DNA of 5,447 nucleotides from a virus (lineage: Duplodnaviria; Heunggongvirae; Uroviricota; Caudoviricetes), in the IMG/VR virus record IMGVR_UViG_2671180669_000012. One strand, given 5' to 3'. Numbering within the stretch: position 1 is the first letter of the stretch; each line of letters begins with the position of its first letter. Below, piece after piece: positions 1 through 5,447 of this stretch. Position numbers and translations under genes: made by a program. The notes below the pieces were generated by a model. That model saw nothing but the letters and a program-made list of their open reading frames with translations. It had not been told where the DNA came from and searched no databases.

Positions 1-101
1 GGAAAGCGGACAGCATCAGTAACGAAAGTATTTAGCGGGCATGAAAATGGCAAATAACGGTCAAACATCGTGGCGTTGACAACGGGCAGACGCTGACGTT
101 C

Positions 102-2504
102 GTGCAGGACCGACCGTCGGATAAGGTGTGGACCTATAACCGCAGTAATGTGGTGATGCCGGATGATGGCGCGCCGTTCCGCTACAGCTTCAGCGCCCTG
201 AAGGACCGTCATAATGCCGTTGAGGTGAACTGGATTGACCCGAATAACGGCTGGGAGACGGCGACAGAGCTTGTTGAAGATACGCAGGCCATTGCCCGTT
301 ACGGTCGTAATGTCACGAAGATGGATGCCTTTGGCTGTACCAGCCGGGGGCAGGCACACCGCGCCGGGCTGTGGCTGATTAAAACTGAACTGCTGGAGAC
401 GCAGACCGTGGATTTCAGCGTGGGTGCTGAAGGGCTTCGCCATGTACCGGGCGATGTCATTGAAATCTGTGATGATGACTATGCGGGTATCAGCATCGGC
501 GGGCGCGTGCTGGCGGTGAACAGCCAGACGCGGACACTGACGCTCGACCGTGAAATCACGCTGCCATCCTCCGGCACCACGCTGATAAGCCTGGTTGACG
601 GACAGGGGAATCCGGTCAGCGTGGAGGTCCAGTCCGTCACCGACGGCGTGAAGGTGAAAGTGAGCCGGGTTCCTGACGGCGTTGCAGAATACAGCGTGTG
701 GGGGCTGAAGCTGCCGACGCTGCGCCAGCGCCTGTTCCGCTGCGTGAGTATCCGTGAGAACGATGACGGTACGTATGCCATCACTGCCGTGCAGCATGTG
801 CCGGAGAAAGAAGCCATCGTGGATAACGGGGCGCACTTTGACGGCGACCAGAGCGGCACGGTGAATGGTGTCACTCCGCCAGCAGTGCAACACCTGACCG
901 CAGAAGTCACCGCAGACAGCGGGGAATACCAGGTGCTGGCGCGCTGGGATACGCCGAAGGTGGTGAAGGGCGTGAGCTTTATGCTTCGCCTGACCGTGGC
1001 AGCGGATGACGGCAGTGAGCGGCTGGTCAGCACAGCCCGGACGACGGAAACCACATACCGCTTCAGGCAGCTGGCTCTGGGAAATTACAGTCTGACAGTC
1101 CGGGCGGTAAATGCGTGGGGGCAGCAGGGCGATCCGGCGTCGGTATCGTTCCGGATTGCCGCACCGGCAGCGCCATCGCGGATTGAGCTGACGCCGGGCT
1201 ATTTTCAGATAACCGCCACGCCGCATCTTGCGGTTTATGATCCGACGGTACAGTTTGAGTTCTGGTTCTCGGAAAAGCGGATTGCGGATATCAGGCAGGT
1301 TGAAACCAGCGCGCGTTATCTTGGTACGGCGCTGCACTGGATAGCCGCCAGTATCAATATCAAACCGGGCCATGATTATTATTTTTACGTTCGCAGTGTG
1401 AACACCGTTGGCAAATCGGCATTCGTGGAGGCTGTCGGTCGGGCGAGCGATGATGCGGAAGGTTACCTGGATTTTTTCAAAGGAGAAATCGGGAAAGCAC
1501 ATCTGGCCCAGGAGCTGTGGACGCAGGTTGATAACGGTCAGCTTGCGCCTGATCTGGCTGAAATCAGGACGTCCATTACGAATGTCAGCAATGAAATCAC
1601 GCAGACCGTCAATAAAAAACTGGAAAATCAGAGCGCGGCAATCCAGCAGATACAGAAAGTTCAGGTTGATACAAATAATAACCTGAACAGCATGTGGGCC
1701 GTGAAACTGCAGCAGATGAAGGACGGACGCCTTTATATTGCGGGTATCGGAGCCGGTATTGAGAATACGCCAGCAGGTATGCAGAGTCAGGTGCTTCTGG
1801 CTGCTGACCGGATTGCGATGATTAATCCTGCGAATGGCAACACAAAGCCGATGTTTGTTGGTCAGGGCGATCAGATATTCATGAACGAAGTGTTCCTGAA
1901 ATACCTGACGGCTCCCACCATTACCAGCGGCGGTAATCCTCCGGCATTTTCCCTGACACCGGACGGGCGGCTGACGGCGAAAAATGCCGATATCAGCGGT
2001 AACGTGAATGCGAACTCCGGGACGCTCAACAACGTCACGATTAACGAAAACTGTCGGGTTCTGGGAAAACTGTCCGCCAACCAGATTGAAGGCGATCTCG
2101 TTAAAACAGTGGGCAAAGCTTTCCCCCGGGACTCCCGTGCACCGGAGCGGTGGCCATCAGGGACCATTACCGTCAGGGTTTATGACGATCAGCCGTTTGA
2201 CCGGCAGATTGTTATTCCGGCGGTGGCATTCAGCGGCGCTAAACATGAGAAAGAGCATACTGATATTTACTCCTCATGCCGTCTGATAGTGCGGAAAAAC
2301 GGTGCTGAAATTTATAACCGTACCGCGCTGGATAATACGCTGATTTACAGTGGTGTTATTGATATGCCTGCCGGTCACGGTCACATGACACTGGAGTTTT
2401 CGGTGTCAGCATGGCTGGTGAATAACTGGTATCCCACAGCAAGTATCAGCGATTTGCTGGTTGTGGTGATGAAGAAAGCCACCGCAGGCATCAGTATCAG
2501 CTGA
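102..2504 (+). CDS. J: Host specificity protein J (lambda gpJ-like central tail fibre), C-terminal ~800 aa only; 5'-disrupted, probably a gene remnant or pseudogene
   Basis: 800-codon ORF ending at TGA 2502-2504. The translation ([106 protein letters not shown]...) is near-identical, as far as I recall, to the central part of lambda gpJ (about 1130 aa full length). In this frame there are stops at 33-35 (TAG) and 42-44 (TGA), and the other two forward frames are also closed within the first 80 nt. The first in-frame start is GTG at 102 with no Shine-Dalgarno sequence. J-like coding appears to begin around nt 81 (NGQTLTF). Confidence 0.85.
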
Positions 2505-2522
2505 ATTTTATAACCCATATAC

Positions 2523-2550
2523 GGGCGCCAGAAATGGCGCCTTTTTTATT
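2523..2550 (+). terminator. Putative Rho-independent terminator downstream of J
   Basis: Perfect GC-rich inverted repeat GGCGCC (2524-2529) / GGCGCC (2536-2541) around a 6-nt loop AGAAAT, followed immediately by TTTTTT (2542-2547). Sits 19 nt after the J stop codon. Confidence 0.6.
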
Positions 2551-2571
2551 GCAGAAAAGCGAGAGGTAATT

Positions 2572-2643
2572 ATGCGTAAAGTTTGTGCAGCCATTTTGTC
2601 CGCAGCCATCTGTCTGTCCGTATCCGGTGCGCCTGCATGGGCG
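2572..2643 (+). other. Sec signal peptide of Lom (24 codons)
   Basis: Positively charged N-terminus (MRK), hydrophobic core (VCAAILSAAICLSV), then A-W-A before SEHQ, a typical signal peptidase I site. Predicted by eye only. Confidence 0.6.
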
Positions 2644-3171
2644 TCTGAACATCAGTCCACACTGAGCGCGGGGTATCTTCATGCCCGTACGAACGCTCCC
2701 GGCAGCGATAATCTGAACGGGATTAACGTGAAATACCGTTATGAGTTTACGGACGCGCTGGGGCTGATTACGTCCTTCAGTTATGCCAATGCTGAGGATG
2801 AGCAAAAAACGCACTACAGCGATACCCGCTGGCATGAAGATTCCGTGCGTAACCGCTGGTTCAGCGTGATGGCGGGGCCGTCTGTACGCGTGAATGAATG
2901 GTTCAGCGCGTATGCGATGGTGGGTGTGGCTTACAGCCGTGTGTCGACTTTCTCCGGGGATTATCTCCGCGTAACTGACAACAAGGGGAAAACGCACGAT
3001 GTGCTGACCGGAAGTGATGACGGTCGCCACAGCAACACGTCTCTGGCGTGGGGGGCTGGCGTGCAGTTTAACCCGACCGAATCCGTGACCATTGACCTTG
3101 CTTATGAAGGTTCCGGTAGTGGCGACTGGCGAACGGATGCATTTATTGTTGGTATCGGATACCGTTTCTGA
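2572..3171 (+). CDS. lom: Lom-like outer membrane beta-barrel protein (Ail/Lom/PagC family), prophage moron
   Basis: 199-aa ORF with ATG at 2572 preceded by GAGAGG (2561-2566). N-terminal signal peptide MRKVCAAILSAAICLSVSGAPAWA with an AxA cleavage motif. Motifs shared with lambda Lom as I recall it: GINVKYRYE, VMAGP, SAYAM-GVA-SR, IDLAYEGSGSGDWRTDAFIVGIGYRF with the C-terminal Phe typical of OMP barrels. Position between J and stf matches lambda gene order. Confidence 0.9.
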   Translation: MRKVCAAILSAAICLSVSGAPAWASEHQSTLSAGYLHARTNAPGSDNLNGINVKYRYEFTDALGLITSFSYANAEDEQKTHYSDTRWHEDSVRNRWFSVMAGPSVRVNEWFSAYAMVGVAYSRVSTFSGDYLRVTDNKGKTHDVLTGSDDGRHSNTSLAWGAGVQFNPTESVTIDLAYEGSGSGDWRTDAFIVGIGYRF

Positions 3172-3275
3172 CAACAGACGCCGATTTATCTTCTGTAAAT
3201 ATTGTTATGATACGCAGGTTCATCCACCTTATGGGGTGAACTGCGTTTGAGGAAACGTAAAGTTACACTGTCCTG

Positions 3276-3310
3276 AAGCCCGTGGCGTCACTGCTGCGGG
3301 CTTTTTTTAT
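3276..3310 (+). terminator. Putative Rho-independent terminator downstream of lom
   Basis: AAGCCCG (3276-3282) pairs with CGGGCTT (3297-3303) around a 14-nt loop, followed by a run of seven T (3302-3308). Lies 105 nt after the lom stop and 13 nt before the stf start. Confidence 0.5.
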
Positions 3311-3322
3311 TGGTGGAAAAGT

Positions 3323-5254
3323 ATGACAGTAAAAATTTCTGGCGTGCTTAAAGATGGCACAGGAAAACCAGTACAGAACTGCACCATTGTGCTGAAGGCC
3401 AGACGAACCAGCAGCACGGTGGTGGTGAACACGGTGGCCTCTGAAAATCCGGATGAAGCCGGACGTTACAGCATGGATGTTGAGCATGGCCAGTACAGCG
3501 TCACCCTGCTGGTTGAAGGTTTTCCGCCTTCACATGCCGGGATCATTACCGTCTATGAAGGTTCCAGACCCGGTACGCTGAATGATTTTCTCGGTGCCAT
3601 GACGGAGGATGATGTCCGACCGGAGGCACTGCGCCGCTTTGAGCAGATGGTGGAAGAGGTGTCACGTAACGCCTCCGCGGTTGCACAGAACACGGCAGCC
3701 GCGAAGAAGTCAGCCAGCGATGCCAGCATATCTGCCAGTGAGGCGGCAACCCATGCGACTGATGCTGCAGGCTCAGCACGTGCAGCCAGCACATCAGCCG
3801 GGCAGGCCGCGACGTCGGCTCAGTCAGCGTCTTCCAGCGCAGGAACGGCATCAACAAAGGCTACTGAAGCATCAAAAAGTGCTGCCGCTGCAGAGTCCTC
3901 AAAAAGAGCGGTGGCTACCAGTGCCGGTGCGGCGAAAACGTCAGAAACGAATGCGGCTGCGTCACAACAATCAGCAGCCACTTCTGCATCCACCGCGACC
4001 ACGAAAGCGTCAGAAGCAGCCACTTCAGCACGGGATGCGGCGGCCTCAAAAGAGGCAGCGAAGACATCCGAAACGAATGCGAAAGCCTCGGAAACCAGCG
4101 CAGAATCCTCAAAAACGGCTGCCGCATCGTCCGCCAGTTCGGCGGCGTCATCGGCATCATCTGCGTCTGCTTCAAAAGATGAGGCGACCAGACAGGCGTC
4201 AGCAGCAAAGGGCAGCGCCACGACGGCATCCACGAAGGCGACAGAGGCAGCTGGCAGTGCGACGGCGGCAGCTCAGAGCAAAAGTACGGCGGAATCCGCG
4301 GCAACGCGCGCCGAGACAGCGGCAAAACGGGCAGAGGATATTGCATCCGCCGTGGCGCTTGAGGATGCGAGCACGACGAAAAAGGGGATAGTACAGCTCA
4401 GCAGTGCGACCAACAGTACGTCTGAAACGCTGGCGGCAACGCCAAAGGCAGTAAAATCAGCCTATGACAATGCAGAGAAACGTCTGCAGAAAGACCAGAA
4501 CGGCGCTGATATACCCGATAAGGGACGCTTCCTGAACAACATTAACGCGGTCAGTAAAACAGACTTTGCTGATAAGCGTGGTATGCGTTATGTGCGGGTT
4601 AACGCTCCTGCAGGTGCAACATCTGGAAAATATTACCCTGTTGTTGTTATGCGTTCTGCTGGCTCAGTAAGCGAACTGGCATCAAGGGTCATTATCACCA
4701 CGGCAACGCGAACCGCAGGCGATCCGATGAATAACTGCGAGTTTAACGGATTTGTTATGCCTGGTGGCTGGACTGACAGGGGGCGTTATGCTTATGGAAT
4801 GTTCTGGCAATATCAAAACAATGAACGAGCCATCCACTCAATAATGATGAGTAATAAGGGCGATGATTTGCGCTCTGTGTTCTATGTTGATGGCGCTGCT
4901 TTCCCTGTTTTTGCGTTTATCGAAGATGGCCTGTCAATATCCGCACCTGGTGCTGATCTCGTTGTTAATGATACGACCTATAAGTTTGGGGCAACAAATC
5001 CAGCGACTGAATGTATCGCGGCGGACGTTATCCTTGATTTTAAGAGTGGGCGTGGTTTTTATGAGTCTCATTCGTTAATCGTTAACGATAATTTGTCGTG
5101 CAAAAAACTTTTTGCCACAGACGAAATTGTAGCGCGTGGTGGTAATCAGATTCGAATGATAGGTGGGGAGTATGGTGCATTATGGCGTAATGATGGCGCT
5201 AAAACTTACCTGCTGCTTACCAATCAAGGTGATGTTTATGAAGTGGCACACTGA
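3323..5254 (+). CDS. stf: Side tail fibre protein (lambda Stf N-terminus with Rac StfR-like distal region), 3'-truncated by IS insertion; the last codons and the stop lie inside the IS
   Basis: 643-codon ORF, ATG at 3323 with GGTGGA 5 nt upstream. The N-terminus MTVKISGVLKDGTGKPVQNCTIVLKARR...GQYSVTLLVEGFPPSHAGIITVYEGSRPGTLNDFL matches lambda Stf (orf-401) as I recall it. It contains the conserved tail-fibre motif KKGIVQLSSATNSTSETLAATPKAVK (about 4373-4456). The downstream region (NCEFNGFVMPGGWTDRGRYAYGMFWQYQNNERAIHS..., GGEYGALWRNDGAKTYLLLTNQGD) resembles Rac StfR-type fibres. Intact homologues are about 770-1120 aa; here the frame runs into the IS911 inverted repeat and stops at TGA 5252-5254. 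Confidence 0.85.
   Translation: MTVKISGVLKDGTGKPVQNCTIVLKARRTSSTVVVNTVASENPDEAGRYSMDVEHGQYSVTLLVEGFPPSHAGIITVYEGSRPGTLNDFLGAMTEDDVRPEALRRFEQMVEEVSRNASAVAQNTAAAKKSASDASISASEAATHATDAAGSARAASTSAGQAATSAQSASSSAGTASTKATEASKSAAAAESSKRAVATSAGAAKTSETNAAASQQSAATSASTATTKASEAATSARDAAASKEAAKTSETNAKASETSAESSKTAAASSASSAASSASSASASKDEATRQASAAKGSATTASTKATEAAGSATAAAQSKSTAESAATRAETAAKRAEDIASAVALEDASTTKKGIVQLSSATNSTSETLAATPKAVKSAYDNAEKRLQKDQNGADIPDKGRFLNNINAVSKTDFADKRGMRYVRVNAPAGATSGKYYPVVVMRSAGSVSELASRVIITTATRTAGDPMNNCEFNGFVMPGGWTDRGRYAYGMFWQYQNNERAIHSIMMSNKGDDLRSVFYVDGAAFPVFAFIEDGLSISAPGADLVVNDTTYKFGATNPATECIAADVILDFKSGRGFYESHSLIVNDNLSCKKLFATDEIVARGGNQIRMIGGEYGALWRNDGAKTYLLLTNQGDVYEVAH
3668..4357 (+). repeat. 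Ala/Ser/Thr-rich low-complexity region of the Stf shaft with degenerate internal repeats
   Basis: Stf residues about 116-345 are almost entirely A/S/T/K/E. Repeated motifs: AKTSETNA at residues 204-211 and 246-253 (nt about 3932 and 4058, spacing 126 nt); TASTKATEA at residues 175-183 and 301-309; ESSK-A at 191-195 and 261-265. The GCN/TCN/ACN codon bias leaves overlapping frames free of stops. Confidence 0.7.
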
Positions 5255-5274
5255 ATTTGGCCACCTGAACAGAG
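5239..5274 (+). repeat. IS911 left terminal inverted repeat (IRL)
   Basis: Terminal about 36 bp starting with TGAAGTGG, recognised from memory of the IS911 IRL. The exact inner boundary is uncertain. Confidence 0.7.
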
Positions 5275-5310
5275 GTGATATGCTCACCTCAGAACAACAC
5301 AGGTGCTCCA

Positions 5311-5447
5311 ATGAAAAAAAGAAATTTCAGCGCAGAGTTTAAACGCGAATCCGCTCAACTGGTTGTTGACCAGAACTACACGGTGGCAGATGCCGCCAAA
5401 GCTATGGATGTTGGCCTTTCCACAATGACAAGATGGGTCAAACAACT
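5311..5447 (+). CDS. insN: IS911 OrfA (helix-turn-helix transposase subunit / regulator), 5' part; 3' end off window
   Basis: ATG at 5311. The translation [45 protein letters not shown] matches the N-terminus of IS911 OrfA (InsN in E. coli K-12 nomenclature) including its HTH region. The ORF is open to the window end. Confidence 0.85.

Follow-up and report, generated by a model that had tools for sequence, protein, structure and literature searches.

Introduction

IS911 was first described in Shigella dysenteriae and belongs to the IS3 group of the IS3 family; it moves by copy-out/paste-in transposition. An IS911 element is expected to be about 1.25 kb long and to carry orfA (a helix-turn-helix protein of 100 aa) and, in the -1 frame, orfB (DDE/rve), joined by programmed frameshifting. 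Insertion of IS911 usually gives 3-bp target duplications, a statement of which we did not find in the open-access literature.

In lambda, the central tail fibre is the J protein, which is essential. The side tail fibres consist of Stf and Tfa, and the locus described below shares the gene order J-lom-stf-tfa with lambda (Ur-lambda) Stf/Tfa and with the fibres of the Rac stfR/tfaR type. Laboratory lambda has lost its side fibres by a frameshift and plates normally, the fibres serving only to speed adsorption (PMC12617516).

In Shigella, IS911 is one of five insertion sequences that expanded in all species, and both IS21 and IS911 are found among the 12 insertion sequences of S. sonnei 53G (PMC7373316). 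Insertion sequences have caused extensive strain-to-strain pseudogene variation in the genus (PMC7373316, Hawkey et al. 2020). Here, we analyse a stretch of 5,447 nucleotides of viral DNA, referred to as the window, in which two tail genes of a lambda-like prophage are interrupted by these two elements.

Results

The window is a draft contig bounded by two insertion sequences

When the truncated Stf encoded in the window was looked up by its exact protein sequence, the whole stretch proved to be the complete short-read contig CXEX01000209.1 (5447 bp) of the Shigella sonnei draft assembly GCA_001261655.1. On its plus strand, it carries the 3' part of J (82-2504; approximately codons 353-1159 of 1159, host-specificity/central tail fibre), which contains Pfam J domains and shows 100% identity with the unbroken J gene in an uninterrupted locus (L022), followed by an intact lom gene for a 199-aa Ail/Lom outer-membrane beta-barrel (2572-3171) and a truncated stf frame (3323-5254). 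The contig begins inside IS21 and ends inside IS911. Short-read assembly breaks at repeats, which is the sole reason we see for these two boundaries, and because IS911 is such a repeat the window is not extendable beyond it. Sister contigs from related assemblies all end within the same IS911, and the left junction between stf and IS911 is common to six contigs from different isolates. A scan of window positions 5150-5447 for promoters and terminators found none.

One of the sister contigs (L003, CXEW01000190.1) has an unusual structure upstream of the part that it shares with the window. Its positions 1-4540 are a palindromic mix of J paralogues with inverted self-BLAST matches of 93-100% identity, and this part has the appearance of short reads from several lambdoid prophages having been wrongly assembled together.

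The stf frame ends within the left inverted repeat of IS911

At the junction, the window reads ...CAAGGTGATGTTTA joined to TGAAGTGGCACACTGAATTTGGCC..., with TTA at 5236-5238 and the terminal sequence TGAAGTGGCACAC from 5239 onward. The string spanning the junction is GATGTTTATGAAGTGGCAC, and the corresponding string of the uninterrupted site is GTTTATGGTGGCTGG. The open reading frame at 3323-5254 yields a 643-aa product (P0121) whose end reads ...LLLTNQGDVYEVAH (...LLLTNQGDVY-EVAH) and whose TGA stop codon occupies 5252-5254. Codon 639 (TAT, 5237-5239) takes its third base from the first base of IS911, but the uninterrupted gene also has a T there; hence, residues 1-639 are native, while E640-H643 and the stop codon are encoded by the element. 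The earlier note had placed the end of the frame and the origin of the EVAH residues in exactly this way, and both its coordinates and its reading are correct. The first two bases of IS911 (TG) coincide with the target sequence, leaving a 2-nt ambiguity at the junction; owing to this coincidence and a chance GTGGC, the BLAST match to stf ran on to 5247. With 209 of 209 positions matching IS911 on one side and 5160 of 5160 matching the prophage on the other, the junction is far beyond chance.

Two ideas about this site were rejected. The sequence TGGTGGC after the insertion point resembles the inverted repeats and might have drawn IS911, but 99% of the positions in the prophage region score as well or better against the repeats. 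A Pin/Gin-type recombination site of an invertible fibre segment at the junction was dropped because the uninterrupted allele is colinear.

Both assembled ends of the element match IS911

Window positions 5239-5447 (plus strand) are identical over all 209 bp to left ends annotated as IS3-family/IS911 transposase in thousands of E. coli records. They include the left end of a full copy in E. coli D1 (L007 1801-3049, 1249 bp, flanked by AAG on either side), which is annotated as 'IS3-like element IS911 family transposase, programmed frameshift'. The left inverted repeat (5239-5274, 36 bp, TGAAGTGGCACACTGAATTTGGCCACCTGAACAGAG) is identical to that of annotated IS911 copies and matches the right repeat of its own element at 24 of 36 positions. 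It is followed by codons 1-45 of orfA (5311-5447), covering the helix-turn-helix region (Pfam HTH_Tnp_1, E = 6e-8) and identical to residues 1-45 of the 100-aa OrfA of L007.

The right end of the element lies on a second contig of the same assembly (L027, described below). Its inverted repeat is 35/36 identical to the IRR oligonucleotide TGAAGTGGTCAACAAAAACTGGCCACCGAGTTAGAG of the Chandler laboratory (Table 1 of PMC2909936), a publication that also gives the repeat length as 36 bp, and this one base is the difference between the present right repeat and the laboratory sequence. The terminal repeats thus span about 36 bp, start with 5'-TG, end with CA-3' and match IRL and IRR. Of this copy, the left 209 bp and the right 415 bp are assembled and identical to annotated copies, the right part including the 3' end of orfB (L027 1-407; rve, rve_3); the middle part of about 625 bp is collapsed in the draft, and the frameshift region falls outside both assembled parts. 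The element had previously been described as IS911-like. Judged by its identity to annotated copies, its OrfA start, its TG...CA termini and its 3-bp target duplication, it is IS911 itself and not merely a relative.

Distal stf and tfa continue on the far side of IS911

A homology search with the truncated Stf returned S. sonnei and E. coli proteins (P0142-P0145) that are 100% identical over residues 1-639 and then continue with GGWNTLRPF... to 1025 aa. Partial S. sonnei proteins (P0138-P0141) also run through the insertion site. The uninterrupted loci (L020-L025) have the gene order J (1159 aa)-lom-stf (1025 aa)-tfa (194 aa)-methyltransferase-potBA-pepT-roxA-phoQP-purB, and window positions 81-5240 are identical to one of them, L022, at 5160 of 5160 positions, with divergence exactly at both ends. 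As indicated by this identity and by the other isolates with an intact 1025-aa stf, the insertion is recent and polymorphic within S. sonnei.

The far side of IS911 was found by predicting the open reading frames that a simple insertion would leave behind, followed by exact-sequence lookup. The predicted distal stf frame starts from a GTG at codon 701 and encodes 325 aa; the protein collection contains precisely this product under the name 'side tail fiber protein [Shigella sonnei]' (P0256), and its accessions belong to the same submission series. P0256 is encoded on four contigs, one of which, CXEX01000078.1 (L027, 20,165 bp), belongs to the same assembly as the window. Its first 415 bp match the IS911 right end at 415 of 415 positions and finish with ...GTTGACCACTTCA, and TTA stands at 416-418, directly after ...GACCACTTCA. 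Thereafter, the contig reads TGGTGGCTGGAATACATTAAGACC... (TGGTGGCTGG...), the exact in-frame continuation of stf, and tfa follows at 1580-2164 (194 aa, Caudo_TAP). Upon removal of the element and one TTA, window positions 81-5238 joined to L027 from position 419 to its end form a sequence of 16,320 bp that aligns colinearly with L020, without gaps and with only 4 mismatches. IS911 therefore entered stf by simple transposition and duplicated the 3-bp target TTA. The two matching copies of TTA and the colinearity make it very likely that both IS911 ends belong to one contiguous copy and that the two contigs are adjacent.

These data settle several expectations of the earlier note. It had proposed that a TTA repeat at the other end of the element would indicate simple transposition, and this end indeed bears TTA and then in-frame stf. 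It had also anticipated several hundred further residues of Stf and a tfa gene, in line with the 386 additional residues of the intact allele and the 194-aa tfa. Its view that the insertion cuts off the distal fibre and tfa holds in the sense that IS911 uncouples them from the upstream part; they are not lost, however, but lie intact just beyond the element on CXEX01000078.1.

The insertion was not found in other collections. The left junction was present in 0 of 5,426 complete E. coli genomes, and exact-pattern scans of genome and metagenome contig collections for the left and the predicted right junctions found none. Lookups with Lom, an 800-aa J fragment and the short C-terminal Stf proteins P0035 and P0038 returned only intact loci or unrelated fragments, with no complete S. 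sonnei genome carrying the insertion among them.

The right junction is shifted in two sister assemblies

In GCA_001260455.1 and GCA_001252655.1 (L028 and L029, positions 1-160), the right end of IS911 is joined 137 bp further into stf, with no TTA copy; the junction reads CCACTTCA joined to TGGTGTTGAG (...TGGTGTTGAGTTTGATGG). The left junction of GCA_001260455.1 (L005) is the same as that of the window. Because the right junction lies 137 bp further in these two assemblies, the stf/IS911 locus is not static in this clade. The shifted junction is compatible with two histories, a deletion next to IS911 or the insertion of a second IS911 and later recombination between the copies.

Alternative explanations of the junction

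The sequence from 5239 onward could be read as genuine alternative stf coding insofar as the frame stays open, which it does only for four more codons; the 209/209 IS911 identity including the orfA start refutes this reading, as do the intact homologues, which continue with GGWNTLRPF... at this point, and we give it no credence. A wrong joining of stf and IS911 in the assembly was considered in view of the visibly chimeric and palindromic J-paralogue part of the sister contig L003, which demonstrates that artefacts occur in these data. Nevertheless, the same junction recurs in the six contigs from different isolates, and the same assembly also contains the opposite junction together with the 3-bp duplication that an insertion should produce. 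Since a chimera would not yield a matched target duplication, we regard an artefact as having a negligible chance of being correct.

An IS911-mediated deletion of distal stf and tfa, the alternative that the earlier note had left open, would account for the window, which taken alone is without either, and the shifted junction without TTA in GCA_001260455.1 and GCA_001252655.1 would agree with a small deletion beside the element, or with recombination involving a second copy, in that sub-branch. For the isolate studied here, this explanation is refuted by the right junction, beyond which TTA and the complete distal stf and tfa are present; even the 137-bp variant has kept tfa and 325 stf codons. 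We hold the deletion to be highly improbable. Alternatively, a simple insertion could have been followed by recombination with another chromosomal IS911, that is, an inversion or translocation that would leave the stf halves apart and the IS ends on hybrid copies. In Shigella, the chromosome harbours insertion sequences in hundreds of copies that vary strongly between strains (PMC7373316), and both contigs end within IS911, where adjacency is not visible in the draft. However, nothing points to such an event, a single assembly contains both TTA junctions, and colinearity of the flanks with the empty site extends over 16.3 kb; we thus consider later recombination very unlikely. Simple IS911 transposition into stf, together with an independent IS21 insertion in J, is the explanation that we hold with high confidence.

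IS911 separates the attachment half of Stf from its receptor-binding half

IS911 splits stf between codons 639 and 640 of 1025, within the gp34-like trimerisation domain. The truncated protein contains the Pfam domains phage_tail_N (1-134), Phage_fiber_2 (350-390) and Gp34_trimer (551-639, cut before its end at 650). In the intact Stf, the prophage tail-fibre N-terminal domain covers residues 1-134 (PF08400, E = 7e-70), residues 1-94 match the Ur-lambda Stf collar (9E7M/9MGH, E = 3e-46), the gp34-type trimerisation domain spans residues 551-650, and the distal part comprises a Collar domain (795-842) and a T4 gp37 receptor-binding tip (790-1025; 2XGF, E = 1.9e-82). The N-terminal attachment domain is thus encoded in the window, and the gp37-like tip and tfa are encoded beyond the element in the same assembly. 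The attachment half and the receptor-binding half are no longer one polypeptide and should therefore form no functional side fibre; the domain content strongly argues for a loss of side-fibre function.

The locus resembles lambda Stf/Tfa in its phage_tail_N/collar region (9E7M), its gp37-like tip (2XGF) and a Caudo_TAP tfa directly downstream. It differs from lambda Stf and K-12 StfR in that stf is a 1025-codon mosaic allele with a distinct central part and is split by an insertion sequence, whereas laboratory lambda lost stf by frameshift. With regard to the mosaic, window positions 3296-4080 are about 99% identical to a 1008-aa allele family (L009) and positions 4055-5240 are 99.3% identical to a 1137-aa stfR type (L001), the switch lying in the Ala/Ser-rich repeat region.

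Other observations were made among the stf homologues. At L008 10752-14670 (GCA_900449145.1, with an identical Lom), the stf frame ends at 437 aa beside an IS66-family element according to the gene table, a possible independent IS hit. At L013 13559-15845, stf is followed by an oppositely oriented tfa, gp37_C and a small resolvase-domain gene, which looks like a Pin/Gin-type invertible segment; this arrangement is absent from the stf allele of the window. In public records, many Stf homologues bear the name 'short-chain fatty acid transporter', and 'phage portal protein' is used for some, which looks like a propagated annotation error.

J is interrupted by IS21

The window begins with the right-hand end of IS21, distal to istB (1-81, plus strand, ...GGCGTTGACA), which is 81/81 identical to that of an annotated IS21 with istA and istB (L030 952-3081, flanked there by AGGG). 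J homology begins at 81/82, and its first four bases, ACGG (82-85), constitute the right-hand copy of a 4-bp target duplication. Assuming such a duplication, the 5' product of J was predicted to have 362 aa, of which 354 are native residues and the rest is read from the left end of IS21. The predicted sequence is identical to P0271, named 'host specificity protein [Shigella sonnei]'. In the same assembly, the gene for P0271 lies at the end of CXEX01000207.1 (L031), where the tape-measure, M, L, K and I genes precede it. The left junction on this contig reads ...TATGGAACGG joined to TGTCAGCGCC (...GGAACGG before the element) and the empty site reads TATGGAACGGGCAG, so that ACGG is found at both J junctions. 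The assembled parts of the IS21 copy in J are its terminal 81 bp in the window and about 83 bp on L031. The termini are TGTCA...TGACA, and the duplication comprises 4 bp (ACGG here, AGGG in L030). J is therefore split by a simple IS21 insertion with ACGG duplication.

This result bears on the state of the prophage, which the earlier note had called defective on the basis of the 5' break in J combined with the hit in stf. The break in J is a real IS21 insertion and more than the edge of the window. The loss of stf would not be sufficient by itself because laboratory lambda without side fibres still plates. The interruption of J is the stronger argument because J is essential, and the prophage is presumably defective mainly through this insertion.

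Discussion

In the assembly of this isolate, we observed both pairs of junctions, both target duplications and the colinearity with the empty site. Based on these findings, we propose that a single IS911 copy transposed into the stf gene of a lambda-like prophage in one S. sonnei sublineage, at a prophage site that adjoins potBA-pepT-roxA-phoQP-purB. Entry between codons 639 and 640 duplicated TTA, and the upstream frame now ends after EVAH. The distal 386 stf codons with the gp37-like tip, as well as tfa, are intact beyond IS911, uncoupled from the stf start and the N-terminal attachment domain. IS21 entered J independently with a 4-bp ACGG duplication, thereby splitting the gene of the essential central tail fibre.

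The insertion in J, the insertion in stf and the 137-bp-shifted derivative might represent nested markers of a stepwise and recent decay of one prophage in a single S. sonnei sublineage, a suggestion that we put forward tentatively and at somewhat less than even chances. If true, the junctions could be used as clade markers and could offer a modest case from nature of a deletion next to IS911.

The insertion in stf is an example of a well-known process that is ordinary for Shigella and holds nothing novel. As in the IS-driven pseudogenisation described for this genus (PMC7373316), resident IS911 and IS21 copies interrupt genes and the interruptions are polymorphic inside S. sonnei; the present locus differs in nothing in principle and adds one more case, in prophage tail genes. 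For annotation, stf and J should here be treated as pseudogenes broken by insertion sequences, with their halves spread over three contigs, and not as a short 'tail component' protein. More generally, the ends of Shigella draft contigs are usually IS copies, and a downstream gene that appears to be missing may be located on another contig. Beyond correct annotation, the significance of the finding is small; the polymorphic stf insertion could be a lineage marker for S. sonnei epidemiology.
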